Assembly (NCBI GenBank): GCA_030141605.1
Contig: JAQGDQ010000123.1
Coordinates: 310,001-374,000 of the forward strand
Length of the DNA stretch: 64,000 bases
Source: Tubiluchus corallicola
Lineage: Eukaryota; Animalia; Priapulida
Direction of reading: 5' to 3'
Shown: piece by piece, positions 9,001-55,100 of the stretch
Layout: each line of letters starts with the position of its first letter
Position numbering within the stretch: the stretch's first letter is position 1
Made by a program: the position numbers and the translations under genes
The notes under the pieces: generated by a model
The model's database searches: none
Seen by the model: only the letters and a program-made list of their open reading frames with translations
Told to the model about the DNA's origin: nothing

Positions 9001-12000
9001 CATCGCGCACTGCATTAATCCGCATGCTGTTTGCCACCTCCAGATTTGTCACCAGCTCCTGTCATCTAGTACTTAGTATCCTTCTCAGGCACAAACTGGA
9101 ATGCCCCAAATTTCTTTTTCTCTGTCTTTGCCATCTTGAATGCCTCATTTCCATACATTAACACTGACCTCAGTACTTTGAATTTATTTTAGTCTGCCCT
9201 AATGCTCCTTGCTTTCTAGATCTTGTCAAGTCTTGTGTGTTGCAATGCTGTGCTTAACCTACTAATTATATCTTGTGTTCCTCCACTCATGATTGACATT
9301 GTTACTTTCAAATATACGCATGTAGCCATAGCTAAGATTAATTTTATTCTGTTTAGTATTCAAACCAGACGAACTCCGTCAAGCCTTGATGCCAACGCTA
9401 GAAAAGCTCTGTCGACAACCGGAGTCGATTCCATTTCGGACTGCTGTCGATCCCGTGTTGCTCAATATTCCAGTAAGCAGTTTTACTCAGCAATTTATTA
9501 CACTTCTTATTTTTTATTCCAAATAGCTATTTGTGCTCTGTTTAAAACAGTAATAATAATGATAATTTATTTTTTACGAGCAATACACTGCGTCTCATCA
9601 CATTAATATGAAATACGATTAGTCGTAAATTTTGAAAATTAAATACAGACTTGAACTACAGTGGATTCTCGTTACAAGAATCACACGTATAAGAATCAGC
9701 TCGATATAAGAATCAAAATCGCGTTTCCCGAATTGAATTGGCATTTTCCTAGTGAAAATCCGCTCGTATAAGAATCACCCTTCTTTCGATAGTAGAATCA
9801 ATTTTGGCACCAACTCCATTGTCTCTCATGACCTGTTTACATGGTTCTGCGCAGTGGGCGTGGCGGACACCACAGAGATTTCAAATTTGTTTGTTTGCGT
9901 GTCAGTCAGTTGAAAAATGGCATCCAAACGGAAAACCAAACTCGGATTGGTGGCACGAGGCTTCGAGGACAACCTTCAATTGAAACGGCTGGGAGCCGAA
10001 ATTGACCGCCTCACCAGAGGAGAAATGAAGCAAAGCAAGCTATCGATATTTTTCAAGCAGTAGTAGTAGTTTGTAGATGTAGAGTTTTCTGTCATCTCCA
10101 GCACAATTTCGGAAAAAAAATTATGTGCATTAAAAAAATTTTAAGGCAATTCTGGCATCATGAAATATTTACCCAACCATTAAATAAAAACATTAGTCTA
10201 GGAAGTTTTAGGTCCTTTTTAGGCCAGAAAAACATTATGCTGTTTCATGTCGTTTCTAGCGTAATTTCGGGAAATAAATAATTTTATGTGCATAAAAAAA
10301 TTTTAAAGCATTTCTGGGTCATGCTCGTTATAAGAATCACTTTGCCTTCTCCCGAGGTGATTCTTATAACGAGAGTCCACTGTACTAGTAAAATGCTATC
10401 AATACAGGTCAAAAACAGAAAACCAAACATTCTAAAACAGTAATAGATTAGCAGCACACTCAAAAAATTTTTTAATTAGATTGAAAAATATTTTATATAA
10501 TAGCAATCAGGTGAAATGAAAATTAAGTGAAATTACCTAGATTACTTCTGGTTGCAAGTGTGTATTAAAATGTCTAATATAAAAACGAGGATGAGACAAA
10601 TCTAGTACAAATAGTTACTACAGTGTTTATGAAATTCTAAACAGGTATGTCTTTAGTCTTTGCTTAAAACAGTCCATTGTTTTGCTGCCGCGTAGATGAC
10701 GGTAATCTGTTCCAGAAATGTGCCGCAAATATAGTTAACTATTTTTTGTAGGATTATTACGACATAATCAAAAACCCAATGGATCTCTCGTGTATAAAAC
10801 AAAAACTGGACACTGGTCAATACAAGAACCCATGGGAATATGTAGACGATGTCTGGTTGATGTTTGACAATGCTTGGGTGTATAATAAGAAAAACACCAG
10901 AGTTTACAAATTCTCCTCAAAGGTAAGTCTGAATTACGTGATATTGACTTTCTCTATAACTGTTGTTAATTAAAATTATTACTAATAATCTTGCTAAATG
11001 TCCATTAAGATTCAAGCACATTTTGCAGGTATTTGAGTATTGAGTTTCTCTAGAATATTGACATTATTTGGAACTGATAATAATCATGATAAATGTAGTG
11101 TGTGATTTACGCATTTACCTCTGGCTGATTGCTAATTCATTTCTCTTGAAATAAAGAATTGCAACCTAATTATTTTTTACTGTGCTTTGCAGTTAGCAGA
11201 AGTATTTGAACAAGAAATAGATCCGGTCATGCAGAGTCTTGGATTTTGCTGTGGCCGGAAATGGGTCTTCCAACCCCAATCTTTGTTTTGCTATGGGAAG
11301 AATTTGTGCACTATACCACGTGATGCTATTTACTACAGTTATTTAAACAGGTATACTTTACAAAATTATTTAAAAGCTTGTATTTTGCTAACATCACACT
11401 AGGTACCAACTTGGTAGTAATTCAGCACTTTTATATTAACTTCAAAGTTCTTTCATTGAACATTTATGCCTAGCTAGTATATTTAGTTTGTGTATTCAAC
11501 TTGTCAGTCAGTCAGCCAGTCAGTCATTTGCCCGGCTGTCATGTGAAAATTCCTCTTCTTTCTGGTGCATGAGGTCATTGTTGAGTAGTTGCTTAACTAC
11601 GCTCTCTGCATGTTCGCTTTGTACTTGAATTGGAATAAAAGGTGTGCATGTATTGCTGAATTTGGATTGTTAATCTGCATATGTTGAATATTGATTGATT
11701 GAATTTCATGAATAACTCTAGTGAAATTTTTCATTTTGCTGTTCAACCAATTTTTAAAATTTTTCCCTCCCGAAAATTTCTGTCAATGCAAATAATATTG
11801 GAAAAGATATTGCTAAATCAGTGTTGTGTCGAGCTAAACGATGAGTAGGTAGGTTTTCTTATCAATCTTTATTTCCTAAGGGAAGCAGCAATAATATTGC
11901 AGTGATTAAAAAATGAATTAACTTGAACTTATGGAAATACTAGTTTTGTAAATATTATGTGTCATTTAAAAACATGTCAGTAAAGTTTATATCTACCTAA

Positions 12001-15000
12001 TAAAATTTAAAGTGAATTTTTCAACTCACAATCTTACTTTCTAATAATTTATAATATATATTACAAGTTCTGTGCAAATGCAAACAAGAATACAGTTGCC
12101 AATGTTTTTCCTTTTTGCTGTCCGACAAAAAAAATCTGTGTGAAATTAAATAGTAAACAGTGAGTTCACAAACTGCATGTTTCTCAGAAATTTTTTTGTT
12201 AAACTGGGCAATTTGAATTGAGGGTCCATTTCCTACCGTATTGACGATTGTATGTGAATGAGAGGTGTAATTCAAATTGTGTTGAATGAGGTGCCTGATA
12301 AGTTGCCTTTTTGTATTGGTTCTTGTTTTTAGCATAATTTTTTACTAAGCTGGCCCGTGAGTTGTAAAAGTACTGCATGTGTCGTAAATATAGTATACAT
12401 CAGAACACTATGTCTGCTTGGTGCATTTTTGTAGATGAGATTTTCACCTTTTTCATTTATGAGTGTTTGCATTAGCACTGTATAAACAATTCTTGCTGTA
12501 GCTGAGGTTTTATATATTGTATATATTGTTTCAAACAACAAACAATAAAGGCAAGGAAATTTCCCCTGAAACACAACCTTTACGTGTCAAAATGCTATTA
12601 TGCAATTTCTTTATAAAGTAGCGAAATACATAGTCGTGTGATTTGCTCTAGGGAAATGTAATGTTTTGTAGCTCTAGTTCTAGTTGTTTTTATTTGTTTG
12701 TGTGAGCATACTAAAACATTTGTTTTTCTTAATACATACACAATTATACTTTATGGGGTATTACTTTTCTGTTTTTCCAGTTTGTGTTTTATATTGTTTT
12801 TAAATTTTTCTTGCTTTTGTAGTTACTGGAGCTTTCTAACTTTGCATATGTTTTGTCTGTCTTTGTTTCATGTGCTTGCACGCTTTGTGCTTGCTCCCAT
12901 TAATTTGTCCCTGGCCGGGCTCATGTCATGACTGTGCTGCCCTCGTGTAACAATAAAGTCAAAGAAAATTGGGACTTCTCTATGACAGATATGTGTACTG
13001 CCAGCGGTGCTTTTTGGAGCTTCCTGGAGAAACGGTGACACTGACCGATGACCCTTCACAACCACAAACGTGAGTTATTGCTATTACATTTCCTTTAATT
13101 GTAAAAATTTATGCTGTCAGCATACAAAGTTCTTACAAAATGTACATACAGTTCCATTAATGGTTCAACATATTTGTTGTATCATTGGTAATTTCTAGGT
13201 TATCCAGTAATAGCATGTAAAAAAATGCCTTTCTTTGTACAGGCTTTAAAAGGATTGTTCTTTAGGAGCAATCCCAGAACTTTGCCACCGGTGATAGTTA
13301 ACAATAGTTAGCAATTAATAACCTGACAAAACAGTGTTTCACAGGTTCTAATTTTAGTTTTTGACAATCAGTCAGCCATAGTTAAGCTAGTTTCTATCAT
13401 ATACCATCGTCGACTCATCATAAAGTTTTGCAGTCAGGTCAGACAGTCCGAACACCACATACTATGTTGTGCTAACTCATCGCGAAAGTCTACTAATTGA
13501 AATTTCTTTATTTTCACAAGATAACTAACTGTTGAAATGAATCGAAAGTAGGAAACAAATATTAAACTGAGTTTCTCAAAATATTTCGCCTTGGGAGCCT
13601 GGAATATATTATTTCCATTTCAACAAAAAAGGTTTGTCAGATTGAATGAAATAGGCAAAGTTTCTCTTTCGTAATTGTATTACACAATCAGAAATCGTAC
13701 TAAAATAAAATAATTAAGCACTTTGTCGAATAGCTGACCTTCTTTTGACAAAATATGTATATTAAACACATTTCTCTTTACAGATGTATAACTAAGTCAG
13801 AATTTCAAGAGAAAAAGAATGATCAGTTAGAATTGGAAGCGTTCGTTGACTGTTTGGAATGTGGCCGTAAGCTGCATCAAATCTGCTCCCTGCATTTTCC
13901 ACAGATCTGGTCTGGGGGGTAAGTTACTTCTGTGTGTAACTCATCTATTTTGTTTTGTTCTCGTACTGGCTAGGTTTCCACTGGTAAATCTCATAACTAA
14001 AAGTAGTGAATTCTTAAATTCCAAGAAGAGTACACAATTTTTGTTTTCAGTTAGCAGTAGTGTATAGTAACTAAAAGTATTTGTAGTCTTAGTCAACTAA
14101 AATTTATAATTTCACTTTGTTGAAGATATTTTTGTGGGTTGAAAAATACTTTGATATTCATGTTTTACAGTTGTGATCATTTTGATCAAACAATTACTAA
14201 TTAAATGAATTTTCCAGATTTGTCTGCTCCTTGTGCTTGAAAGCAGCAGGACGATCCCGGAAAGAGAACAAGTTTAATTCAAGACGTAAGTTCTGTGGTG
14301 AACCGACTAATGTCATAATGACATAGTTATGACAATAACTATAACTTATAATGATATCACGATAGAAATTATTTTTGAAATATTACTTCTATCTAATAAA
14401 ATGGTGAATTAAATGCTAATTTTCTACGACTGCTTTCAAGTTCACCAGTTAATTAAACATTCTTTTTGTAGGAACTTTGTGTATAAGAAACTTTTCATAA
14501 CTTCTTGTTGCTTGGTTTTACTTCATTATTTAGAGCAAGATGCTTTTTATTGATCCCATTTATACCTATGTCTGTTTTATGAAGTTATTGATAGATAAAT
14601 GCGGTTGCATCACAAATATTCAAATTTCTCTTATCCTGTAGTTGCTTTCCGTTTCAGCAGTTAGCAATTTATCTCTTCTGTTTTTGCATAGGTCTGCAGA
14701 GTACTCAATTGGGTACATTTATTGAGAATCGGGTGAACAAATTCCTGAAAGCCAAAGGCTGCGTCGGTAGCGAAGTGACCATTCGGGTCGTTTGCAGTTC
14801 TGACAAGGTTGTTGAAGTTAAACCAGGGATGAAAGCAAAGTAGGTTATGCAGCATTTCCTTTTTGAGAAGCCTGTTTGCTTGTTTGACTTTTTACTTTGT
14901 TGAAGAATACTATAAGTAGTTTTACAATGATTGTGTTTAATTCTTCATATTTTAATAAATGCATTCAGTGCACTAACAGGTTGATTACCAGGAATGAATA

Positions 15001-18000
15001 CATTATTATTATTGCTCCATTAGTGTCTTGAATATATGATCACTTTATGAATGGAAAACTTTAAAAAGCACTGTGTAAAACAAATTTGTATTTCTTGGTA
15101 TTAAACAATTTTTGACATGAGAACGATAAAAAATTTTATATTGTTTGAAAATTGCAATGTGTCATTTTCTGTTGCAAAATATTGCTTTGGCAAGCAGTAA
15201 TTCGTATTATTAACATTCCCTTATTATTTTGCTACAGATACACTGATGAAAACCTTTTTTCTGATTCATTTCCGTATCGGGCAAAAGCTCTTTTTGCTTT
15301 TGAAGAGATTGATGGAACCGAGGTGTGTTTCTTCGGAATGCACGTACAAGAGTATGGGCCAGATGCTCCACAGCCTAACACACGGTAAAAAAAACTTGAA
15401 CATTTTTGTTAAGCGATGTGAAGAAACATATTGTGTAATATATTGTGTGCACTGTATACTGCAACTTTTATTTTGTACTGACAATATATTGAAGTTGCAT
15501 CTCCTAACTAAGTTTTTATTTTTCATAGGCGTGTCTATATATCATATTTAGACAGTGTGCATTTCTTCCGACCAAGGGAATATAGAACAGCCGTGTACCA
15601 TGAAATTTTAATTGGCTACATTGAATTCGTTCGGAAGCTCGGGTATGTTTGTTATATTGTTTATTTTTCTCGGTAAATCCGTACATAGATTAATTGGTTG
15701 GAGAATGAAAATCTGAATTTGTATCAAACTTTGGCAGATACCTATGGGCACACATTTGGGCATGTCCACCAAGCGAAGGCGATGATTACATCTTTCATTG
15801 CCATCCACCTGAGCAGAAGATTCCCAAACCAAAACGTCTACAAGAATGGTATAAGAAGATGTTAGACAAATGCAAAGAAGAGCAAGTCATAATTGATTTT
15901 ATGGTAATTACCTTAATGATGATAGTAATACTTGAATGTGTATATCTAAATGCCGCTTATGTTGTTACTGAAAGCCATCATTACATTAACGTCCGTTACT
16001 TCGCTTGCAGTTAATACCATTATAAATGTATTTTTTAAACTGATGATACCAGTGACACACTAAATACATTTATAACTTATAGGATATCTACAGTGATTGT
16101 CAACAAAACAACATGACCACCGCCACCGATTTGCCCTACTTCGAGGGTGACTTCTGGCCCAATGTGCTCGAAGAGAGCATTAAGGAGCTAGATCAGGAGG
16201 AGGAAGAGAAACGGCGACGCGAGGAGGCAGAAGCGCTGGAAGCTGCTGCCACTGCTGCTCAGGTGATGGAAAACAATGGGGAATCAAATGATGGCATCGA
16301 TATGATGGAGGTAAGGCAGTCAGTTTAAATATTGGTGTCTATATAGTTGTGTTCGAATTCTGCATATTGAAAATTTTGCATATAACTTGTCTGATACATA
16401 TAACATGTGTTCAATATGTATTCTGAATTTTAGCCTCTGAATCCCAATGGCAAGAAGAAAGGCAAGGGCTCAAAGAAGAAGTCAAGTAAATCTAAATCCA
16501 GTCAAAGGAAATCTAGTAAGAAGAGTCTAAGCACAGTTGGATGTGACCTGTCCCAGAAGGTTTCCAGTGTAATGCTCAAACATAAGGAGGTAAAACACTA
16601 CATGTAAATGCATGAAAATGGGAAATCTCACATTTGGTTTTAAAAAATTTTGGAAGCTTTATCAATTTTGTGTGTGCATTTGTTTTTGAAGTTAGATTTT
16701 GAAACTAAATATGTATAACTACCTAATTTTTGTGCCAAACATTATTCAGCCACAAGAATTTTTTATATTATTCAAAATTTCTTCTCGCTTTATAGGTGTT
16801 CTTCGTTATTCGGTTGCAACCATTAGACTGGGATCCTAGCCCCATAGTTGACCCTGATCCTTTAATTTCGTGTGATCTGATGGATGGTCGTGATGCCTTT
16901 CTCACCGTTGCTCGTGAGAAACATCTAGAATTTTCGTCTCTTCGCCGTGCCAAATATTCAACAATAGCAATGTTGTACGAGTTGCATACTCAGGGGCAGG
17001 ATCGTTTTGTTTACACATGTAACAGCTGCCGAGTGTCATGTGAAACGCGTTACCACTGTGTTGTATGCGAGGTAATAATGTTTGCACTGCACATTGTTTG
17101 TTTTCTTGTGTTTATTATTTTTTCGGCTGTTTGCAAATGAACCAAATGTGGTCTGACTCACTGAGTCAACTAAAACCTGACAGTTATCCGTACTTTTAAT
17201 ATTCATGGGTGATTTAGAGTGTCATACATTGGGGATGTTTATCTATACATACGTTTTTAATTTAGGCGTTATTGTGTGTTTATTACAGGACTTTGACTTG
17301 TGTGTACAGTGTTACCGAACTTCAGGACATGAGCACAAAATGGAAAGACTTGGGCTGGATTTAGATGATGGTCAGAATGCAAGTGGTGACAAAGCCAATG
17401 GTCAAGACTCACGCTATCAATCAATCATGCGTTGTATTGAGTCACTGGTGCACGCTTGTCAATGTCGGGACGCCAACTGTCGCAATACTAGCTGCAAGAA
17501 GATGAGACGAGTTGTGACGCATACTAATTCGTGTAAAAAGAAGGCTACCGGTGCTTGTAATATATGTAAACAGTTGATTGCCTTGTGTTATTATCATGCT
17601 AAATTATGTAGAGTAGAAAGATGTCCTGTGCTCTTCTGCCCTAATATCAAGATAAAATTAAGACTACAGCAGCAACAGCAAAGAATGCAGCAGGTAATGT
17701 ACTTAAAATTAAATAGCGGTAGAAAGTATTTTTAATGACGAAAATAATGAAATGTACAATTGACAGTAAAGGCAAAGCGTTATTCATATTTGTGATATAT
17801 TTACACAGCAGTGAACAGTTTTGTAGTATAGCAGTAATGTGTCTCAAAAACTTATATTCTACTCCACAATATGTTTAGAATGAATAAATATAATAAATGA
17901 GAATAGAGCAAGAATTGTGATAATCGTCTTTGGTAACTGATGTTGAAAACTTCCGACTTTAGTGTACATTTGAGAAAGTGTGTGATTTAAAATTTATGCC

Positions 18001-20273
18001 TTGATATTTGGTATGCATTGCTTATACTCAAATGTTTTTCTATTGTACTATGCTTTACAAATTCGCCTTATTCCATCACTGTTGGCATATAACACAGCTT
18101 TGTGCTACATTTATTAGATTTGAACTTTGTGTATGACTAACTCACTTGTAACAATGCTACCACATTGTTGGTTTTATTAATACTTTGAGTGATTTTTTTT
18201 ACATTTTTGTCTTCAGGAGCAACTGATGCGTCGACGGATGGCTATTATGACAAGACAGATCAGTAATAATTCGAACGACAGTGCTTCTTCCACCCCGCAG
18301 CCTTCAACGCCACAGTCGTCTCGCACTCCTGTTAATGCGCTACCACCGCACTACCAAAACAGTGCCGCAATGAAACCAGAAATGAATGGCAAACCTGGAA
18401 CACCACCAGTTGGTGCCCTTCATGCTGCCGAGCAGGTACATTTTATCAACTATTTCATGAGACTAATGTAAATAATTATCTAGTGTTTTTTATTTGTATT
18501 GTGCACATTTGGTTTTTATTACCAGAATTGGTGATTTTATAACACAATTTTGAAGATTAAAATTTCCAAATGAAATCCTTTATGAAGCACTGAGAAAACT
18601 CACCTAATTCATTGTCATCAACTAAGCAATAAACTGTAGGTACAAGTTCAATGGAAACTTATATAAAGATAGATAATACTGCAAAAGACTAATAAATCAA
18701 TTTATTTATAATATATTATAAATATTATAATAACGTTTATTATAACATTAGATTCGACAACAAGCAGCGAGACAATACATTTCTCCTATGGGCAGTTATG
18801 GGAAAGGCGGTAGCATGGCTGATGGACCTGCGGCTTCAGTACCAGTGTCACAAGAAATGATGCGTCCACTACAACCGGGCTTTATTAATCAACAGACTGG
18901 CATGCAACAGTCTAGTCCTTTGCGTGGCCAACTTCCTGGCATGCAGTTGTGTGTTCCATCCCAGGTGAAAACATTATAGTTACTATATATTTTTTAAATT
19001 AATGCATTTAAGAAAATAACATTTTATCATCATAATAAAAGATGTGTCTGAACCATATAATTACTTGCAGCATCCACAACGAATGGGACAGCCTCCTGTC
19101 ATGATTAATAATCAAGATGTAGTGAATATGCAGCAGCATCAGATGCAAGGTTCACAACAAGCATTACAGCAACTGTTGACAACGCTAAAGTCACCGTCTT
19201 CAAATCAGCAGGAAGAAGTGCTGAGCATTTTAAAGTCAAATCCTGAGCTAATGGCTCAGTGCATCAAGAAGAGCAAAACAGCACAGAAAGAACAAGAGCT
19301 TGCGCAGCAAACACAACAGCAGTTTTATCAAAAATTTCAGCGTCAGTTGTCGGACGGGCATTCGGCACAGATGTGCGGGCAGCCACCAACAGTAAGCATG
19401 AATTCGATGTCTATGGGTGGAAACCCATCAGGTGGTAAACCTGTAGCCATGAATCAGATGAGTATGGGTGGAAATCCAATGACTGTTGGCTGTAACACAG
19501 GTCAGATGGGCAGCATGCCAACCATGCTAAGTGGCAATCATATGAGCATTGCATCGAGTCAGCACAGTTTGATATGTAAACCAATGATGTGTGCAAGCGA
19601 TAAACCATCACAATTAATGAGTAACAACAACCCACATATGATGTCGTTGAATGCTCATCAGACGCTTGGAACACGTGCGAGCATGAACGGAAATCAAATG
19701 GGAGGTAAACCGGGGCAAATGTTAAATCTCCGAGGTAGTTCTACTTTGGATGCACAAAATCAGCAACAACTTGCACATCAGCAGTGGTTAAAACAGCAGC
19801 AACAGCAGCATATGATGATGAATATGCCCCGTCAAAGAGTGCCAGCTTCCCATCAATTTCACCAGCCTCCAGCACCTCCGTATCCACAAGGAGGGCGACA
19901 GATGCATCAGCGAGCGGTAAATCCCCATTTATTAGCGCATGGACAGCCGCCACATCCAAGCCCTTCATCACAGCAGCTGATGCACCAAGTTTGCTCGCCA
20001 CCTCCTAATCACACGCCCCCTGTGGCATCACCTCGCCAGCGACCAATGATGACACCATCTCCACGGCAACAACTCTCTCAGTCACCTCATTTACCGACAC
20101 ATTCTCCTCATCCGGGTTTGATGGGTGCGGAGCAACAAATAGGTGGTGAAACGGTGCCTCTTCCTCAATCACAACAAAACCCTAGTGAGCAACTAGGAGT
20201 ACCACCTGCATATGACAATTCGTCGCTTGCGATGCAGGATCAGTTATCACAGTTTGTAGTGGACCACTTGTAG
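23..20273 (+). CDS. CREBBP: CREB-binding protein / p300 histone acetyltransferase (5' end outside window)
   Basis: Phase-consistent exons: 23-173, 696-912, 1788-2030, 2218-2418, 2660-2987, 3419-3536, 3773-3911, 6692-6942, 7197-7292, 7418-7606, 7818-8118, 9357-9472, 10752-10922, 11193-11350, 12989(or 12959)-13069, 13784-13918, 14218-14285, 14692-14839, 15238-15384, 15529-15642, 15738-15903, 16083-16310, 16434-16589, 16796-17071, 17289-17693, 18217-18435, 18752-18964, 19071-20273. Domains in order: TAZ1 ([21 protein letters not shown]), KIX ([18 protein letters not shown]), bromodomain ([17 protein letters not shown]...[11 protein letters not shown]), RING/PHD, HAT ([50 protein letters not shown]), ZZ, TAZ2, NCBD ([14 protein letters not shown]...[10 protein letters not shown]). 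Co-ortholog of CREBBP/EP300. Confidence 0.97.
4204..4508 (+). mobile_element. Truncated pogo/Tigger element, 5' end (CBP intron)
   Basis: Tigger-like terminus (tacataggaacctcgactta) followed by ATG 4416, [30 protein letters not shown], which resembles the CENP-B-type N-terminus of Tigger/TIGD transposases. The similarity then ends. Confidence 0.7.
8236..8658. mobile_element. MITE with CAGGGTTCCCAC termini
   Basis: Perfect 12-bp TIR CAGGGTTCCCAC...GTGGGAACCCTG and repeated internal GTCAGGGAAA motifs. TSD not resolved. Confidence 0.75.
8795..9290 (-). mobile_element. Degenerate 3' fragment of an RTE-clade LINE
   Basis: Minus-strand translation with frameshifts gives [20 protein letters not shown] (9170-9142), CLRRIL and [12 protein letters not shown] (about 8970-8935), typical of the RTE ORF C-terminus. 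Confidence 0.75.
9659..10382 (+). mobile_element. pogo/Tigger-type MITE with TA target duplication
   Basis: 26-bp TIRs (CAGTGGATTCTCGTTACAAGAATCAC, 24/26 match) flanked by TA on both sides. Internal 48-aa mini-ORF at 9917-10063. Confidence 0.9.
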
Positions 20274-23200
20274 CTTTGGCTTTAGTACGTTTTGTACAGA
20301 AATTGTGAATAGTAATTAATAATAATAATGTTGTTATTTGTTGTTGTTGTTATTATTATTATTGTGAGATAATATAACGAGAACTAATAATTATGTTGAT
20401 TATAATATTGTGCATTTGTTTTTCTTGGGCATTTTTTTTTGAAATTGGCATTTTATTATGGTCTGAATATTTTATTTTGTAAGATTCGAAACATTGCCTG
20501 ACCCTTTTGTGTCTGAAGTATTTAAATTAAAGAGGGTCTAAAATTTTGTATAAACGTCTAAAATGAAACGTGAATATGCTGTAAATTATAACTAAAATGT
20601 ACAAAGAACATGATTACAGAGTAGGTAGGTTTGTTGTTACCAATCTAATATATTTTCCATTTCATTAAACTGTAATTTTATAGATAGCTAGTTTATCAAG
20701 ATAGCATTTATATCATAGTGGACTTAGCACCATCTAAGTTAGGGCAAATTTTATGTAAATACCTTATTTAGCTAACTTGATTTACAGTACCGCTAGATCG
20801 TAGACAATCGTGACATTACGTTATCTAGCTAAAAGTGATTGAGACGGTTACATGTTTACTATATTGTTATTTTGGTGAATCTGTTTGTACGTAATTTATT
20901 GGTAAATAAAGGAAGGCCGCACCGGTAAAGTATTCCTGTAAAAAATTATGCCAAAACTGTATACAAATCGGGTAATTGCATAGTTTTGTGTTGTGATTTT
21001 TATTTAGTTTATTGTTCATTAGCATTATATTTTAGCCGTGATTTAGTTCAATGTCTTGTTCTTTTCAGTGATGCTAAGACCCCCACGGACAAACTAAGAT
21101 GTTATTAATGCAGTTCGTTACTGTGTCATTAACTTTAATAATGATATGTTTATCAAATGCTCAAGTCCAAAAGTAAGATTGGGGAGTAATCTGTCTTCTT
21201 TATCAGAACTTGTCACCAAAATATTGCATTTTATTCTGTAAAACCAAATCGTGGCTAAAAAAATTTGATTAAAATTTTGAAGAAACGTCTGTAATTTAAC
21301 AATAACTGACAAAAACTTTGTTAAGGGCGTTATGGAATTGTAGCATTGAAGAGGAGAAATTTAGCATTGGAAATGGATTGTGCTGATTTTCATTTTCAGA
21401 TTAAGCAAATTTTACTCAGAAATTCGTTCCAGTTATTTAGTGATATTAGTGCTTTATAAAAACCATATCATTGTCAACTGTTTGATAGGCGGCTTCATCA
21501 AAACATAGAATATTATGATTTCTAAATACTAAAATTGTAAATGATATCTTCATTTAGTGTTAAACACTTGTTACTGTATCTTTAAAATCTGTTGATTAGT
21601 GATTACCACTGTCTTGTATTAAAATAACTGTCAGAGCACACAGACACAAATTGTTTATCGCCAACTTGTTTATTATGCATTAAAATGCCTGTTGTCTATA
21701 AAATAAAATGTGTGCACTTTTATAGATTTTACCTGCTGTGTTTTTGTGTTTAATTAGCCTTTGTTGATTCACTTTTCTGGATCTACAATGTTGAGAAATA
21801 ATAATTAGGCTCTGCAAAGCATGGGAAATGAAAATTGCACGTTGAACAGCTGTGATCAGCATAAACACTGCAGTTATCATCTTGATCGTAGTCACCGTCA
21901 TCTTTTTAATCGTTGTTATTATCAATAATGCTTTGACAGACAACAGTAAAAAGATGGAGTGTACATCAATTAAGAATACAATACAGTAATTGCATTCATC
22001 ATTATCATTGTCATCGCCACTTTCATTGTCATTTATTTTTGTTATTAAGTTTCTGTTGAGCATACTGTCAAATGATATGAGTATATAGTTAGTACGGATT
22101 CATTCCCTTCTACACACAAAACTGCAGAAAATATTCAAAAATAGGGTCTCTTTCACTACTGAAGACGGCACAGTGCCGCCTATGTTTTCCTTGTAAAGGA
22201 CGGAAGGCGGCAGAGTGCCGCCCTAGGTCAGCACTAAGCGCAGTTACCCATGATTTCGCAGCTACGGCTATGCAAAAACATTGTAGAAAAGTTTAACAGC
22301 CGAGAGATTGTGGTTGCGTCGCAACAAGTAAGGCTAACTAGCCAATCAGCATCTGAAGCCAGGTGCATTCCAAATACTGTGTAGAACGTTTTCATGCAAA
22401 ATTTCATGACAGTCACTTGTTCTGCATACTGATAAAATAATTGCGTATTATGGATTACTAATATGAACTTTTGTGTAAATTGGCTTCTAAATTTAAATAT
22501 GTGCTTATTTGTGTGGGTGTGCGCGTGAGTGCATGCATGAGGGCATATATGTGTACCCATGCGTATAAATAAAACTAGTATTCAGAATTAATGTTTAATA
22601 ACAAATGGCTATTTATTTATTTACAAGATTCTGTTTTAGTAACACACCACAAGAAGTACAAAAGCCAATGCGGCCCAGTTAAAAGCAACTACGTAGTGAA
22701 AGTGTTAAGAGGAAACAAGGCGGAAGGTTGATATAATTTTATGAAGCGTGAAAATAGTATATTAGGCATGTCCAAATTTGTAAAATGTTTCACCTCAAGT
22801 ATAATATCAGCATTGCTATGTAGATTACTGTAATACATCAATGGGTATACTGGGTAAGAAAAAATAGTCAGCATTGCCATATATTGTAATTTTTGGTGAA
22901 TAACCAAAAAAGCTGTCAAAGTAATTTTTTTGTTTAAAAACTTTATTTGCAGATTATATCTTTGAATTACTGTTTCACACTATGCACATCAAAACAATTC
23001 AATTCAGACTGGATTTTTTCAACATTTGTACACGCTGATATCAACCAAATTTACAAACAACAATGCAATGCAATGCTAAATTTTCGTGTTTTGCCAAACA
23101 TTTATGATAGTGAAATAATTGGACACTTGCAGTTGCACTAGAATTTTGACGACGCAAATATCATCAATGTAAGAAAATGTGGGAAAATCAGTGTCGTGTG

Positions 23201-24599: not shown

Positions 24600-32083
<7,484 letters not shown>

Positions 32084-32519
32084 CTTTCTATGAGTATTGC
32101 TTGTTATGAAATTCGCGTTTTCCGCGAAAGTTAACGCTGTAGAGAAGGAATGTGCTGCCATCTACCAACCACTTTTGCAAAGAAATTTCACGCACGTTAG
32201 AAGAAGCCAGAGTTTACTCAGCCGTGAAAATTTAGTAAGAATCTTTGATTCAGTAACGGTAAAAGAGGCTGATAATCTCCGAAGGATGACAATCTCTTCT
32301 CTTCAGCAAATCAATTGTTTCCATCGTACCATTCTAAGAGAAATTGGAATGTTTTCAAAGGGTCTTCATTATTACTGATTTTTGTAGAAAAAAAAAGATA
32401 AATTCGCGACAATCTCTTATAAACGCATAACAACTGTAATTTTCTCATTTTTGAAATAATTGGTAGCTTCTGCGTTTTCCCCGTAAAGTACTAAAAACAT
32501 AATACACCAAGTTACAACT

Positions 32520-32772
<253 letters not shown>

Positions 32773-33806
32773 TAGCTGTCTCTATGACCTAACCTTCTTT
32801 ACCTATTGCTCTATAAATTCTTTACCCATCAGATTTTCGGGGATATACTTTATTCGAAGCTGTTAACTATGTCATATATTCAGTTTATCTGTCATTTGTA
32901 AAGCTAACTATTCCAGCAAGCGATATCCATATGAATTTTTTAAATGAACTGATAAAGTAGCATCGTAGTAAAACGAGGAAAACAACTGCATGAGTTGCCA
33001 CAGTGCGTGCTTGGTTGTAAACTTAAGCAGTGCTGGGTCTATTTAGTAAACAAATTTAACTGGTAGCCATCTAAAAATTGTCTGCTACTTTATCTGTGAT
33101 GCCGATGTGATAGCATTGCTTCTGAGTGTGGGACTTGGCTTGCATGATAAAAACACGTGCAAAACAACAGAGACTGAAAACTATAGCGTGACATAGGTAA
33201 ACAGTTTATTGCCCAACATTACATATCTATGAGTTTTATATACATAAATTACAAAATCATTACTGAACATGATAGCTGTCAGCAAAATTTAGCAGCAAAA
33301 CTACTTGTCCTGAGACACTCGTACATACTAAGCTTAAATAATCCATTAACTTTTAAGTTTTTAATTTCATTTTATACTTTGTCTTTGAGGTTAGACACCA
33401 TGAGTTTTCGTGTTATATATAGGCCCTAGTCACGAAATAGGCTTAAAAGACGTGCATCTGCGAATTTAAATAAATATGAGTAATTCATTAAACGCTGTAT
33501 TTCTGAATCATACAAATGAATTACAAATAAATAAGGAAGTATTAATATAATTTAATATAATTACGTGTACATTGTTAAAAACTATAGGGACATATCAAAA
33601 TACGATAAGACAATGCATTAGACGTGCTCAGTCATATAAATATATTATTATAGTCCTTATAATATATATGCTACATATGGATATAAGCAAAAAAGAAACA
33701 AAACAAACCAAAAAACGAGAATAACATTTATTAACAAAATCACTGGGATAATTAGGTAGCCAATACTTTGATTAAGGTACTTACACGTGCTATCAAAAAA
33801 CAACAA

Positions 33807-35758
33807 TCAGGCCGAAACTATTTCATTTTTGTTTATTTTATCATAAACATTTTGAACAAAAGTCATATAGCTCATGAGATTTCTCATCATTTGATACGTT
33901 CGAAAATCAAATTCTGATGGGTTGACCGGACTCTTGGGAGTAACATCAGCGTCAAACTTCTGCACTACTTGCCCCGTAATGGCTTCCGAGGTGAAAAATA
34001 CCAAGGCGATCAAATTCCTAATCTCATCTACGACGTAGACTAGAGAATAATCAAACCCCTCATAAGACTCAGCCGCTTCAGTCACAAATTCCAAGATGTT
34101 TGTGGTGTTTTTATAAACGAGATCCACCACTTCGAAAGCCTATAAATAAAAATTCATTTAGTTTAGGTATTCTTGTAAAACTTAGTGATACGCGCAGATT
34201 ATGGCCTGTGATTACATTGCTAAAATAATTAATTTTGAAATAATTTTAAAACTTAAAAAAATTAAAAGAAATAACTTCTATTTTTATATTTTCTATGTTT
34301 TCTTAGTTTAAGCTTTTTTGAACTTGCCCTATTTTGTTTGATGAATATGAGTATATGTATACTACAAAACAACTAACAAAAAGCCGTAGTTGGCTAAAGG
34401 TAAGCACATATGTAGGCATTTTTAAATACAGTATTGAGATAACCGCCGTCGATACGAATATTTTTCGCGCCAATAAGAACAAACAAGCCTACATTTCTAG
34501 CCAATGCAGTCTATCGAAAATATTAATTTTGTACATTAATCAATCAACATACGCTCCAGTTTGAATCAATGTCTGGCGGAGATGGAAATCCTTCGTCGGC
34601 GATCAGTCCTGGGTACAAATCATATCCTGGATGAGATTCAAATCCCAACTGAAAAAATGATTTTTAATTATACACAGACAACCCAGAGTTAATTTTGTCG
34701 CTCCTCTTGCGAGAGATAGCTCTCTACACATCAGTGTAGTTGCAATCTGAAACTTAATTTTGACCTGTTATTGTTCTCGCGTGATTGCTGTGACAGATAT
34801 TGTCATTGATCACGCCGCTTTTCAGACTTTCTAGTCACAAAACGATGAACGTGCACAAGTGTTTCAAACGTAAGAAAACCACAAGTTCTAATGCCCAAAT
34901 TTAACTTGTAGATAGGCCTACTCAATTTCTAACCTTTAGACATCACAGTGAAAGTTTAGCAGTTAAAATAAATATGGACTATGGATGGTAGGCGTATTCT
35001 GTATATATAATATTGATACAATTTGTTACTTTTGTTTTCGTGCGTTATAGTTTTTTGAGTTATAGACGTTGAGCTTATGTGTATGCAACATTATGTATGC
35101 TCGCTTACTTCTGCGACTGTTTTTGATGTTTGTATTTTTAACTTGTGTGAGTTGCCATTTATTGTCCTGCGTCGCTATTTAACGTGGAAAAAGGTCACAC
35201 CTTCATTGCTGACATAATGGTATTCTAGATTTCAGTAATAATTGTACTTCATATATCTGTCTAACAATCTGCCTTACTGTCTAAGACTATAGAATGATTT
35301 ATGTATGATCTAATATGTGACTATATATGGTCGATAAAGTATAAAGTAAAATATATACAAAATATGTGTACCTTTGGCAGAATTTCGTTCGAGACTTCTT
35401 CAGCTTTGAACCGAACAGCTTGAGCCCGCATGATCACAGTTTCACACTGGGTTAGTTTCTTGACTGTCGCAGGCATTTTGAAATGATGAGTCACGTGGTT
35501 ATGCCAATGATTACAGTCCGGCACCTTCTCGTCATTTTTTAGCATGAAAACTGTCAACAATACCACCAAGACGGTAGAGATGTTAAAGTCGAATTTAAAC
35601 AAATTTTTAAAGGTTTTAAATCCATTTCTCGATATTTTCTTCAGCCTCACAATAAAGCGCATCATTTTCGTGTCTTTCGTTGTAGTTGGCTCTTCCATTT
35701 CAACTGTTACAACACTGCCACGAGCAACTTGTTCTTCTGCAGTTTTATCCCCCGACAT
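33807..35758 (-). CDS. Uncharacterised 271-aa protein with N-terminal hydrophobic anchor; candidate four-helix class-I cytokine
   Basis: Exons 35758-35372 (AAG|gtacac), 34648-34553 (tttcag|...AGC|gtatgt) and 34139-33807 (ttatag|...TGA) join in frame with phase-0 introns. The middle exon is absent from the ORF track. Hydrophobic segment ISTVLVVLLTVFML follows a basic stretch; sequons NWS and NTT lie C-terminal to it. The gene model is well supported; the product identity is inference. Confidence 0.8.
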
Positions 35759-35899
35759 GTTTCTTGTTTCTCATATTCAAACGGAACCTTTGTCAAATTA
35801 AAAATTATTAAACCTGGTCAAAAAATAACTATAGACGTTGATACTTGCACTGATATTATCGACAACATTATAGTCACAAAGAAATCAGAATGACGAAAT

Positions 35900-35935
35900 A
35901 ATGATGCAACCTCAGCGCAAAGACTGGCTTATATA
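35900..35935 (-). promoter_or_regulatory. TATA box plus initiator of the orphan gene
   Basis: Minus-strand TATATAA at 35935-35929 and TCATT (Inr-like) at 35904-35900, about 30 nt apart and about 145 nt upstream of the ATG. Confidence 0.55.
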
Positions 35936-36347
35936 GGCATTGGTCGGCTTTATCATTTATGTAGGTGGGGGCATAATGAGTATTATCAGGTGTTATGTCA
36001 ACTGATGACAATCTTCCAGCATTGCACATGCACATTTACACAGAAGGGATTTATCAGTTTTGAGTTGACTATCTAGATCTAGGAATAGGCGATATGACGT
36101 TCTCTCGCGGGTAGCGCTAAATCATTAAATTGTTTGAACTAGCTATATTCACGATAGAAATAAAAGCTGGATTGTTGTCATCTATAATAGTCAACTTTAT
36201 AAAAAAATTTAATATCAGAAATTATAGACCTGCATATAGTAACGCAGACTATTTCAAAAATTCAAACCTATTAAACACCCAATGATTTACAGTAAAAAGC
36301 AGAAAATGTGGTCTTCAGAAATTTCATCATTTTATATACCATAACGA

Positions 36348-36349
<2 letters not shown>

Positions 36350-36424
<75 letters not shown>
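36350..36424. repeat. (TA)n microsatellite
   Basis: Read directly from the sequence. Confidence 0.95.
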
Positions 36425-36427
<3 letters not shown>

Positions 36428-38419: not shown

Positions 38420-38701
38420 GAACAGAAAGAGAAAACCCGAAAGAGAGAGAGGGAGGAGATACAAAGAGTGAAAAAGTGAGGGGATGACAGAGAGAAAGGG
38501 AAAGGGAGGGATGCCGGGTAGGGAAAGAACAAAACGGGTGAGAGAATACGAATACGAATAAGAAACTGCTTTCTCAGCATAATTTGCATTGTATCATTTG
38601 CTACACATAATCACTTCAAATTCAATTGAGAGGGCGGGCTGAGAAGTGAGATGGAAAGAGAGAAGAAAGGGAGGGAAAGAGACAAAGACAAAGGGAAAGA
38701 C

Positions 38702-38747
<46 letters not shown>

Positions 38748-38880
38748 GAATAAGGGCGATAGAACGGGGGAGAAAGTGAAGAAAAGAGGGAGATGAAAAG
38801 AGGGAGAAGATGAGAGGGATAAGATGGGAAATGGGAAAGAACTACAAGGGAGAACCAGACAGAGAAAGAGAAATCGAAAG
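38420..38880. repeat. Polypurine GA-rich tract including (GA)n
   Basis: Strongly purine-biased stretch; (GA)n at about 38702-38745. Confidence 0.8.
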
Positions 38881-38949
38881 CTTTATTCCACTAAGACAGC
38901 AAACTTTTAGCAGTTAAAAAGTAACCGTGATTTTCCTGTTAAGAAATCT

Positions 38950-46881: not shown

Positions 46882-46921
46882 GTTTGCAAATAGAATTTTC
46901 AGCTAAGTGGACTTTGTCATC

Positions 46922-49900
46922 ATGATCACTTCTGCTGCTGGGATCATTTCATTGCTGGATGAAAAAGAGGCAGACCTGAAGCTCTATGCCCTCCAGAAGT
47001 TGAATATACTCGTTAGTGATTTCTGGGCAGAAATATCCGAAGTGATTACAAAAATAGAAGTGTTGTATGAAGATGATGCTTTTAAACATCGAAATTTGGC
47101 TGCACTGGTTGCATCCAAAGTTTATTATCATCTCGGGTCTTTTGAAGACTCGTTAACGTACGCACTTGGAGCAGCAGCATTGTTTGATGTTAATTCATCG
47201 TCAGAGTATGTGGAAACAATTATAGCCAAATGTATTGATCACTATACAAAACTACGAGTTCAAAATGCAGAAACAAGTGAACAGGTAGAAATCGATTCAC
47301 GGCTAGAGGCTGTTGTCAACAAAATGTTTCAGAGATGCTTTGATGATGGTAAATACAAACAAGCGGTAGGAATTGCCCTGGAAACTCGTCGTCTTGACGT
47401 GTTTCAGGATGCCATAAATAAATCTAACGATGTATCTGGCATGTTATCGTATGCCCTTGGAGTATGCATGACATTGATACCTAATCGCCATTTTCGCAAC
47501 ACTGTCTTAAGAGTTCTGGTAGAACTGTACAGTGGTTTGAAAACTCCAGACTATATAAGTGTATGCCAATGTTTGATATTTCTTGATGATCCGGTTTCTG
47601 TTGCAGAAATATTGACAAAACTTGTGAAGGAAACTGACAACGGGACGCTGCTTGCTTATCAAATTGCTTTTGACTTGTACGAAAGTGCTACACAAGAATT
47701 TCTCAATCGAGTTCACCAAGCTTTGCGTGGCACTGTAGCGCTGCCTGGATCCGAAGTTGCAACTGAAGACGAGGAAATGGAGACAGATGAGAAATCCGAG
47801 GAACGCAAAGAAACAGTAGATGCTGTTGAAACTGCAGAGACAGAAGAAGATAAAGAAACAAAAAGCCGTTTAGACAAGCTTACTTCCATTCTCACCGGAG
47901 AAATTTCGATAGGTCTTCATTTGCAGTTTTTGATACGAAATAATAAATCAGATTTGTTAATTTTGAAAAACACAAAAGATGCTGTGCGTAATTCAGTTTG
48001 TCATACAGCGACAGTAATATGCAATTCTTTTATGCATTGTGGTACAACTAGTGATACATTTCTGAGGGACAGTTTAGAGTGGCTAGCACGAGCCACGAAT
48101 TGGGCAAAATTCACTGCAACTGCAAGTTTAGGTGTCATTCACAAGGGTCATGAGAAGGAAGCATTGAGTTTAATGGCAACTTACCTGCCTAAAGAAACTG
48201 GCCCTGGTAGTGCTTATTCTGAAGGGGGTGGATTATATGCACTAGGATTGATTCATGCTAATCATGGAGGTAAAATGATAGACTATTTATTAACTCAACT
48301 AAAAGAAGCTACAACTGACATGGTTCGCCATGGTGCATGTCTGGGTTTGGGCCTTGCTGCAATGGGCACGGCACGCCAAGATGTCTATGATCAGCTGAAG
48401 ATGAATTTATTGCAAGACGATGCTGTGACTGGTGAGGCCGCTGGGCTAGCTATGGGTATCGTTATGCTTGGCTCAAGGTCACCAACAGCCATCGAGGACA
48501 TGGTTTCTTATGCACAAGAAACGCAGCATGAGAAAATTATTCGTGGATTAGCAATTGGAATAGCTTTAGTGATGTACGGGCGTTTAGAAGAAGCAGATGC
48601 TCTTATTGAAAGTCTATCGTTAGATAAAGACCCTATTTTAAGGCGATCAGCCATGTATACAGTAGCCATGGCATACTGTGGAACTGGGAATAACAGTGCT
48701 ATACGAAGATTACTGCATGTCGCGGTTAGTGATGTAAATGATGATGTTCGACGAGCAGCTGTGGAATCTTTAGGATTTTTACTATTTAGGACTCCAGAAC
48801 AAGTACCCAATGTAGTCTCTTTGTTGTCAGAATCATACAATCCACATGTAAGATATGGGGCTGCCATAGCATTAGGAATATCTTGTGCAGGAACAGGCCA
48901 GAAAGATGCTATTGCTTTGCTAGAACCCATGGCAAACGATACAGTAAACTACGTTCGACAAGGGGTGCTTATTGCTTCGGCCTTGATTTTGATCCAGCAG
49001 AATGAGGTTACCTGTCCAAAAGTGACATACTTCAGACAACTTTACACCAAAGTCATTAATGATAAACATGATGACGTCATGGCTAAATTTGGTGCTATAT
49101 TAGCACAGGGCATACTTGATGCTGGTGGGCGAAATACTACCATTTCTTTACAGTCAAGAACTGGCCACACACACATGACATCTGTTGTGGGCATGTTAGT
49201 GTTCTTGCAGTTCTGGTTTTGGTTTCCTCTTGCACATTTTCTGGCTCTAGCATTTACGCCCACTTGTCTCATTGGTTTGAATGCAAACATGGCCATGCCA
49301 AAGATTGAGTTCAAATCTGGTGCAAAGCCGTCGACGTATGCTTATCCACCACCTCTAGAAGAAAAGAAAGAAAAAGAGAAGGAGAAAGTTTCAACAGCAA
49401 TACTTAGTATTACTGCAAAAGCCAAAAAGAAAGAATTAGAAAGAGAGCGTCATCGCAGCCAAGATAAAATGGAAGTAGATGAACCAAAAAAAGATGAAGT
49501 AGAGAAGGATTCAAAAGAGAAAGATTCAAAACAAAAGGATGCAAAAGAAAAGAAGGGTGCTAAAGCAGAGAGCAAGACCAAGTCGTCCAGCAAAGAAGCT
49601 GCCAACAAAGAAGCCATGACAAGCAAGGAAAGCACAAGTAAGGAGGAAGAAGTAGAAAAACTAGAAGAGAAAAAAGAACCGGAACCCAATTTTGAAATGT
49701 TGTCAAATCCGGCTCGTGTCATGCGGGCACAGTTGAAAGTAATTAGCATGCCTGAAGGTACAAGGTACAGACCACTGAAACCGGTCTCTACCGGAGGAGT
49801 GATTATGTTGCGCAATCTAAAAACCGAAGTACCAGAGGAAATTATAGAGGAAGTTGTTGCACATGGACCTAAAGTGGAGCAGGAAGAAGCTGAACCAGAA

Positions 49901-49933
49901 CCACCCGAACCTTTTGAATATGACGAGGATTGA
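46922..49933 (+). CDS. PSMD1: 26S proteasome non-ATPase regulatory subunit 1 (Rpn2), 1003 aa, single coding exon
   Basis: Uninterrupted ORF from [14 protein letters not shown] through the PC repeats ([49 protein letters not shown]) and a KEKE-rich region to [10 protein letters not shown]. Start taken at ATG 46922 rather than GTG 46907. Confidence 0.98.
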
Positions 49934-52123: not shown

Positions 52124-55100
52124 TTATTTAACATCAGCATCAAAATCTTGCACTAATAACTTTGTTTCTTCTGTACCATTTCTTGACCCAACAGCACAGA
52201 CTAATTTCGTTTGACTTGCTCTGAAACAAAAATAAGTTGCTATCAACTAACGTCAAACAAAATAATAGTCCTGTTTCTAGTACAGCTATAACGATACAAT
52301 ACTTATGATACATCTGAGTTAACATTTGCAGCCTTTATAAAAGATTAGATGAAGTTGTTGACAATGAAGGTTAAAATAATTCAATTAACTGCTTGATTTT
52401 TATTCATTACTTGTGTAATGAGTAAGCTATTGTTTGCATAGAAAGCCAAGAAAACGTAAAACATGTCAATACTTTGAGTTTAAAAGGTGTTTGTGCATTT
52501 TCTGGCTCACGTTTGCCATTTCACAAGCTTATACGCAACAATGTAATTAGCCTACTACTGCTTTGGCTGCTAGCAATGCTTGTGTCAAGCCAACAACTTT
52601 TCAATGTACTCATTGATACGTTCTACAGCTACAGCTTCAATTACTTCACGTCAACTTTTATTAGCATACGATTGCCATGTTACGAGTGCACTTCAAGATT
52701 CAACTTTAACTAAAACATTAGCTTTTTGAATGTGCCTAATATTAGCAATAAGGAGTCGGAAACATATTGTCTTGTCTAGACAGGCTGTGTTGTCTTGGCT
52801 AACAAACAAGAACTGATAACACAGTAAAAGTTTACTATCACCTAGTATTTTATTATGTTTACATAATTGAACTACATTAAAGTCGTGTTCAAAGTGCTTA
52901 CTTATTAATTCTATAGCCACTACACTCCTATTTAGGGTTCAAACAATGTTTGTCATTTTTTATACTACTCTGTACTATTTCAATTCATGTTTAAAACTAT
53001 ATTTTTTGCAATGAATTATTGTCATTTCCAGGAATAAAAAATCTCATACAAGACCATATATTAAAAGTATAATTGCTATTATCAACTTGTTCTGCATATA
53101 TCGCATCACACATATTTTGGGAGTCAATCTTAGTATGTTGTTTTTGTAATTTTCAGTTAGCTTACCTTATCCTCCACACAACACCACCACTGCCACCACT
53201 ATCTAAAGACACCAGATTTCGCAGGAATTCACCAGTCTTCAAATCCCACAGTTTTACGGTACCATCATCAGAAGACGTGATAACAAACTTGCTATTAAAC
53301 TGCAAACAAGTGACCGCACTCTGATGTTTGTTGGGGCCTGAAAAGTGTTTACACATCTTGAATGTTATATTATCAATCAAGCAAGTGTGACAGTCACAAA
53401 AGAATGTAGAATATAACTTGCCCCAGATAGAGGAAGATTAAGCAGATTGCTATCTAGGCTAACTATGTGCCTAAGTCAAACAAAAAATACTGAGATTGTT
53501 TAATACAGAATATAAAAAGAAAAACATAACATGAACTTTTTGATAGAAAGAACACAGAATTATTAAATTCATAATTCAAATATCATCTGCGATTCGAGTC
53601 TAGACTCCAGAATCACTGCCAATTTCTTTAGATATATTACTCAAGTTTGGTATTAAAAATTCAATGAATTTCAGCTTGCCCCACCTTTAACTGGCAAACT
53701 ACAGTAGCTGAACATAGTAGTAAATAGTGGTAAAGTACTACAGTAGCAAGTAGTAATAGCAGCAGCACCAGTAGAAACCAGTAGTAGAACACATTAAGGT
53801 AAGAGACCTAGTTTACCTGTTAATGTTTGCAAGCATTGCCCTGTCACGATGTCCCACACTTTGACTGTCGAATCAGCATTCCCCGACACAAGTATGTTGT
53901 CCTTGAGCTCCATGCCACTAGTTAACGACTGATGTCCCATCAGCGTGTGTAAACAGTTACCCGTTTCAATGTCCCAAACACGTATCGATGTATCCAGTGA
54001 ACCGCTGACTACGTGAATGCCATCAAACTAAAATGTAAACATCAATCAATGATGTGAGAGACAAGAATAATTTACATAAACATTAAAATACGATACCAGT
54101 AGTACTAACAGATGCCATGTACTGTACTCCTATTCTTGTAATGGATGCATTCGTGTGCAGTGAAAACAAAGCGAAGAATTAGTTAACAAAGTACTTTTAA
54201 AATTACACTGATATAATAAAGATAATAACTGCAACTACCTAAATTTCCCAGGATTTCAATGTTATGTGATGAGAGAAAGTGGTACTGAGTGGGAGATTTT
54301 GTTTTTGTGTTTTGACCATTTACAACAGATGAAATACACCATTGCAGACTCCTGTTTCTGGCAAGATGCGACTTGACAACATATAAATTGTTAACAGTTA
54401 AAAGTACATAGTTACATAAAATTAATTTTTTACATGAAATTCATTTTTTTTCAAATTATGAAGTTAAAGTCAATGGCTCTTAATTTGTAATTTATTTTGT
54501 TATATTAGCTGTAAAAGACATTTGCTTACTCGATTCTTGCTACTATTACGATCGATTTTTTAAAAATGCCATACCTGTAAGGAATAGACACGATTCGTAT
54601 GTCCGGTCAACGTGTGTAGGCACTCTTCCGAATCCGGATTCCAAACTTTAACAGTGTAATCATACGCCCCACTAACAACCCTCTTGCCATCATACTGGAC
54701 GCATCGGACAGCAGCAACGTGACCCATCAGCACGTGCAAACACTCACCACTGTCAACGTCCCAGACTCTAAGTGTTGCATCCCGTGATCCACTCACTACT
54801 CTGAAATGCAGAAAGATATAACATATTGAATGCATTTGGAAAATGATAATATAATGCCATACACACTGAAAAGCAATAAAAATCTGAACACCTGCTTTCT
54901 CTAGATCTAGAATCTGGGTTACTGAACATTAAATTAACATAATAGTCAAACCTCTTTACACCGCCTACTTTGAGAATGCAAAAACGTTATAGCGAGTCTG
55001 GCATTATAACAAGGTGCATTCATGCATACGTATTTATGCAAATACGGATATTTTGTTTTACTAAAATTTGGGTCCTGAGGGAGGTTGGCATTACAAAAGG

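Follow-up and report, generated by a model that had tools for sequence, protein, structure and literature searches.

The 64,000-nucleotide stretch of Tubiluchus corallicola contig JAQGDQ010000123.1 analyzed here (the window) carries, at 33807..35758 of the minus strand, a three-exon gene for a 271-residue protein. Judging from its predicted fold, this protein is probably a long-chain class I helical cytokine that would act as a JAK/STAT ligand through a receptor of the Domeless/gp130 type; if the fold is right, the use of such a receptor would be quite likely. The parts of the gene are as follows.

35372..35758, minus strand: exon 1, residues 1-129 (129 codons), with an acidic N-terminus, a basic amphipathic stretch, a hydrophobic segment, a His-rich stalk and helix A.
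35585..35665, minus strand: basic amphipathic stretch, residues 32-58 (8 K/R, 1 D/E), starting at Met32/Met33.
35540..35581, minus strand: hydrophobic segment, residues 60-73, a candidate for a signal anchor that stays uncleaved or for an atypical signal peptide.
35378..35455, minus strand: helix A, residues 102-127, predicted from sequence, with a/d stripe C105 V108 A112 V115 A119 V122 I126.
34649..35371, minus strand: intron 1, 723 nucleotides, GT-AG, phase 0, directly after helix A; a predicted splice.
34553..34648, minus strand: exon 2, residues 130-161 (32 codons), the Pro/Gly-rich AB loop, with Trp160 in its last part.
34140..34552, minus strand: intron 2, 413 nucleotides, GT-AG, phase 0, directly before helix B.
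33807..34139, minus strand: exon 3, residues 162-271 (110 codons plus stop), with helices B and C, the CD loop and helix D.
Within exon 3, minus strand: helices B (residues 162-186), C (193-216) and D (238-264), from AlphaFold2, Atlas and the homolog.
33900..33911, minus strand: FxxR, Phe238-Arg241, a candidate site-3 motif at the start of helix D.

The three-exon locus is a real gene. An earlier interpretation of the letters alone (the sequence-only reading) had described a clean open reading frame of 271 residues in three exons; the model indeed contains 0 internal stops and all the segments then quoted, and both introns were confirmed to be of phase 0 with GT-AG borders. With a codon model built from two genes nearby, the in-frame scores of exons 1, 2 and 3 were equalled by 0.07%, 0.74% and 0.93%, respectively, of the ~2,800 overlapping non-coding stretches that served as null; for exon 2, one reverse-strand frame outscores the proposed frame in this model (0.268 vs 0.212). 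The GC content is 39-47% in the exons vs 27-34% in the introns.

Scanning all 1.84 billion representatives with HMMER yielded a sole match to exon 3, denoted P0001 (E 3.6e-50, 79%, 133 residues), which is known from one 1,047-nucleotide contig. The two sequences are identical at 85 of 110 positions, and 18 of the 25 differences have BLOSUM62 scores of at least 0; identity amounts to 22/24 in helix B, 21/24 in helix C, 13/19 in the CD loop and 19/29 in helix D. The first 22 residues of P0001 resemble exon 2 (14/22 identical) and lead, with one extra residue, straight into the exon-3 match. Because P0001 thus reads across the equivalent junction, its continuity supports junction 2, and it suggests that the source contig is spliced. 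Word-indexed searches found no outside homolog of exon 1 (0/15 candidates) and no longer protein matching exon 3 (0/93), and a two-sequence profile returned one of 92 candidates, P0001 itself. Exact look-up of three window proteins in the collection gave 0/3, pattern matches in metagenome and viral contigs were confirmed in 0/226, 0/219 and 0/262 cases, and the 64-kb window contains no paralog. Pfam scans of the three exon pieces, the helix-A piece and P0001 returned just sub-threshold rows (E 0.015-0.15), and a sequence search of the PDB 0 matches; a PDB match at E 7.1 was rejected as a His-tag region. Run X1 is DNA-like because its contigs run unbroken through the exon 1/intron 1 border, and the stretch that they cover excludes junction 2; run X2 has 0 contigs at the locus. 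A single contig of run X1 differs at 35499 (stalk codon 87, Asn to Ser), which is either an allele or an error.

Residues 102-264 are predicted, with good probability, to form an up-up-down-down four-helix bundle. The AlphaFold2 models cover helices B-D of exon 3 and P0001, with helix A outside the 3D model; the heptad a/d pattern of helix A is regular (shuffle p 0.025) and the helix is free of Pro and Gly. The helices are 24-27 residues long, and the AB, BC and CD loops comprise 34, 6 and 21 residues (the AB length resting on predicted junction 1), which is the long-short-long pattern of long-chain class I cytokines. The loops contain 10 (AB, residues 128-161), 1 (BC) and 4 (CD) Pro plus Gly residues vs 0 in the four helices. 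Helix and protein lengths fall within the ranges used for cytokines (20-30 and 150-280 residues), the latter being a size range given in PMC13081863. For both sequences the Atlas neighbours are cytokine clusters, with the CNTF group as the top cluster, and the best cytokine row of a wide fold search was the CNTF/CLCF1/cardiotrophin-2 group; ferritin-like rows tie with cytokines in that search. With the exon-3-only model, cytokines occupied 0 of 50 wide-search rows, and Foldseek on the P0001 model gave 0/484 matches at E <= 0.001. The four-helix cytokine assignment of the sequence-only reading is partly supported, by loop and helix lengths, the models of helices B-D and the Atlas clusters, with no hit in Foldseek.

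The putative receptor-site residues are shared by the two sequences. In solved complexes of the gp130 family, the alpha-receptor is bound by a Trp that ends the AB loop (CNTF W64, CLCF1 W94, p28 W97), and LIFR by an FxxK motif with which helix D begins (10.1101/2022.06.30.496838); Arg replaces the Lys of this motif in 14.6% of OSM sequences (PMC9601804). In our protein, the C-terminal end of the AB loop has Trp160, with exon 3 starting two residues on, as expected for a user of an alpha-receptor, and the counterpart of Trp160 in P0001 is Trp21. By analogy, Trp160 would make a site-1 contact with an alpha-receptor or with a soluble CRLF/EBI3-like partner. At the start of helix D, for which an FxxK-type site-III motif had been claimed, the candidate motif is Phe-x-x-Arg, with Phe238 and Arg241 conserved in P0001 and with Arg for Lys in both sequences. 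We further take Cys105/Ile109/Ala112/Arg116 to be spaced as CNTF residues 17/21/24/28, and Trp160/Asn172/Phe179 as CNTF residues 64/76/83.

The mechanism that we propose is inferred beyond the sequence and the partial fold. An inducible, short-lived mRNA would be translated, and the protein would enter the endoplasmic reticulum (ER) through its hydrophobic segment; the bundle would fold in the ER lumen and be shown on the surface or released. Sites 1-3 would then gather class I cytokine receptors and activate JAK/STAT, with helices A and C forming site 2, Trp160 site 1, and Phe238/Arg241 contacting an Ig-domain receptor at site 3.

The N-terminal part, which is read from one genome, bears on how the protein might be exported. 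A basic N-terminus followed by a hydrophobic segment had been claimed; the basic stretch (residues 32-58) and the segment (residues 60-73) are indeed there, the first residues being acidic and the segment short. Its Kyte-Doolittle peak is 3.27 over 11, 2.37 over 15 and 1.82 over 19 residues. The charge bias gives the N-terminus a predicted N-in orientation, and the segment is a likely entry to the secretory pathway. A simple rule, which disallows Thr at -1, finds no signal-peptidase -3/-1 site in residues 66-83. Export as an anchored protein, uncleaved and on a stalk of 28 residues, with subsequent shedding or action on cells in contact, has in our estimate an even chance; export by an atypical cleaved signal peptide seems somewhat less probable, and another route unlikely. 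The stalk (residues 74-101) contains five His and Cys82, and the protein has only two Cys, both N-terminal; the sequon at Asn172 is retained in P0001. All five His fall within nine residues (84-92; 35483-35509, minus strand) adjoining Cys82, a possible binding site for metal or glycans, or a possible means of pairing Cys82 with Cys105. Less likely than not, in our view, is a type II gp130-type cytokine whose short anchor is N-terminal and whose stalk is rich in His, signalling by contact or after shedding near Lys100-Lys101 in a TNF-like manner, with the site-1 Trp and the site-3 FxxR kept.

Among known proteins, the gene product is likely closest in features to the CNTF/CLCF1/cardiotrophin group. 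Besides the fold-search results, it shares with CNTF, CLCF1 and cardiotrophin-2 (PF01110; PDB 1cnt, 8d7h) the Trp at the AB-loop end, the Phe-x-x-basic motif at the start of helix D and the apparent lack of a plain cleavable signal peptide; CNTF and CT-1 are not known to have one. It differs from this group in that no sequence similarity can be aligned, that Arg stands in place of the motif's Lys, that the N-terminus is extended by 100 residues, among them a hydrophobic segment, and that an intron not known from CNTF precedes helix B. In IL-6, G-CSF and growth hormone, too, the AB loop has a phase-0 exon to itself; a literature search found no paper that maps intron positions onto cytokine helices. 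The gene has three exons, not the five of IL-6, IL-11, G-CSF, IL-12p35/IL-23p19 and growth hormone/prolactin (PMC13081863). It lacks introns between helices C and D and in a signal peptide, and it shows no IL-6 cysteine pattern. An IL-6 orthologue was rejected because IL-6 genes have five exons and four introns, vs three and two here (PMC13081863); the hydrophobic segment may or may not correspond to the cleavable signal peptide typical of IL-6. With Drosophila Unpaired 1-3 and mosquito Upd-like, which are Domeless ligands, the protein shares being invertebrate, a sequence orphan and cytokine-like. The role that we propose has been shown for Aedes Upd-like, which differs in having a predicted signal peptide (10.1101/2025.09.21.677592). 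The Unpaired family was absent from the Pfam scans, run on three exon pieces, a helix-A piece and P0001, and from the Atlas rows listed. Upd2 is said to carry a signal anchor; our search for that report returned unrelated papers. As an anchored ligand that can be shed, the protein would also resemble SCF, CSF-1, Flt3L and the TNF-family type II ligands; the former three are short-chain, C-terminally anchored ligands of receptor tyrosine kinases, and TNF ligands are type II with a beta-sandwich fold.

Several caveats apply. Junction 1 (35372/34648) has no outside support, being covered by neither RNA nor a homolog, exon 1 contains three further phase-0 donor-like sites, and intron 1 contains two possible mini-exons. 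These points would fit a partly wrong model, in which exons 2 and 3 are real and joined to another upstream exon or donor, so that the N-terminus, the anchor and helix A lie outside the protein; we consider this very improbable, since exon 1 scores as coding, its last part is a helix with regular heptads, up to a phase-0 donor, and a CCAAT/TATA pair lies 175 nucleotides above it. The hydrophobic moment of helix A at 100 degrees is low (0.08-0.20), FxxK/R motifs occur three times in the protein, and Phe238 sits on the core stripe of helix D, presumably two residues nearer the core than the motif Phe of CNTF. The hydrophobic segment, at ~14 residues, is short as membrane spans go, and it comes late for a signal peptide. 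Its length fits the latter, and a conventionally secreted cytokine would start at Met32/Met33, which are possible alternative start codons, or at Met21, with the segment as an atypical cleaved signal peptide and nothing retained in the membrane. Position -3 is a purine at both Met21 and Met32, Met1 is overlapped by an upstream ATG in another frame (35774), and a signal peptide belongs to the definition of IL-6-type cytokines (PMC13081863). The n-region would be 27 residues long even from Met33 and the simple rule finds no cleavage site, which makes this version rather doubtful.

The absence of Pfam, PDB-sequence and Foldseek matches, the tie with ferritin-like rows, and the amphipathic, nearly acid-free basic stretch would also suit an unrelated helical protein of a membrane or organelle, specific to the lineage, whose C-terminus of three helices only looks cytokine-like; it could be a ferritin-like bundle, for example, or a protein targeted to mitochondria by that stretch. 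Most ferritin matches use the first three helices (e.g. 4cmy, 1-115 of 163), a ferritin needs a fourth helix after the cross-over helix, and only 7 residues follow helix D. As the protein has 0 ExxH motifs and its helices A-D are free of His, membership in the ferritin-like superfamily was rejected. As the Atlas neighbours of both sequences are cytokine clusters, we regard an unrelated protein as distinctly unlikely. A helical hormone of the same fold (growth hormone/prolactin/leptin-like), acting through a homodimeric receptor in growth or metabolism rather than in injury or immunity, is similarly hard to favour: the AB-loop Trp and the helix-D FxxR are features of the gp130/LIFR group, and the two N-terminal Cys leave no C-terminal disulfides of the kind found in growth hormone and prolactin.

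For the cytokine reading, the gene is a concrete candidate for the JAK-STAT ligand reported absent in most invertebrates, with Trp160, Phe238 and Arg241 as testable residues. A 2026 BLAST survey describes IL-6-family ligands as vertebrate-only and missing from most invertebrates, even though these possess receptors, JAK and STAT, with Upd as the insect exception (PMC13203501); Domeless is the receptor through which mosquito Upd-like signals (10.1101/2025.09.21.677592). Searches guided by structure recovered IL-6-like genes from lamprey and hagfish (PMC13081863), and interferon-like genes from lancelets and from no other invertebrates (10.64898/2026.05.30.728932). Should the anchor be real, it would represent a mode of presentation of which the literature searched gave no description for long-chain cytokines; should the type II reading be true, the three-site receptor architecture and alpha-receptor use would predate vertebrates.

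The sequence flanking the gene contains the following elements.

35929..35943, minus strand: CCAAT and TATA-like boxes, ~175 nucleotides upstream of the ATG (pattern matches only).
35955, 35988, 36056 and 36074, upstream of the gene: GATA sites (pattern matches only).
33210..33806, minus strand: putative 3' untranslated region, 597 nucleotides, with six AU-rich (WATTTAW) elements and four poly(A)-signal hexamers.

STAT, AP-1, kappaB and C/EBP consensus sites are absent from the 580 nucleotides upstream. Because of the AU-rich elements, an inducible, short-lived mRNA is faintly suggested, and ATTTA motifs are usual in cytokine mRNAs (PMC3271213, PMC9465101, PMC12162339). The count of six is modest against dinucleotide shuffles (p 0.019; 0.68, 0.10 and 0.02 for the other three end points), and the heptamer is not enriched across the window (181 observed vs 169 expected). 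The putative 5' untranslated region has two out-of-frame upstream ATGs on the minus strand, at 35868 (16 codons) and 35774 (9 codons); a different letter at 35867 in run X1 removes the former. The gene has long microsatellites, of the types (CA)n, (CT)n and (AT)n, on either side (32487-32790, 36350-36425 and 38600-38890).

Four further genes were recognized in the window.

~1700-20300, plus strand: CBP/p300-like, with TAZ-finger; identity read by eye.
~25100-29900, minus strand: PRPS-like (ribose-phosphate pyrophosphokinase).
46907-49933, plus strand: PSMD1/RPN2, one uninterrupted frame of 1,003 residues.
~53100-55000, minus strand: FBXW7-like, with WD40; identity read by eye.

The CBP/p300-, PRPS- and FBXW7-like genes are useful synteny markers for an orthologue search. 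Over its first 260 residues, PSMD1 shares ~69% identity with the human chain (181/262 columns, hand count), a level that points to an invertebrate; the gene, a single frame among intron-rich neighbours, is possibly retroposed or intron-stripped.
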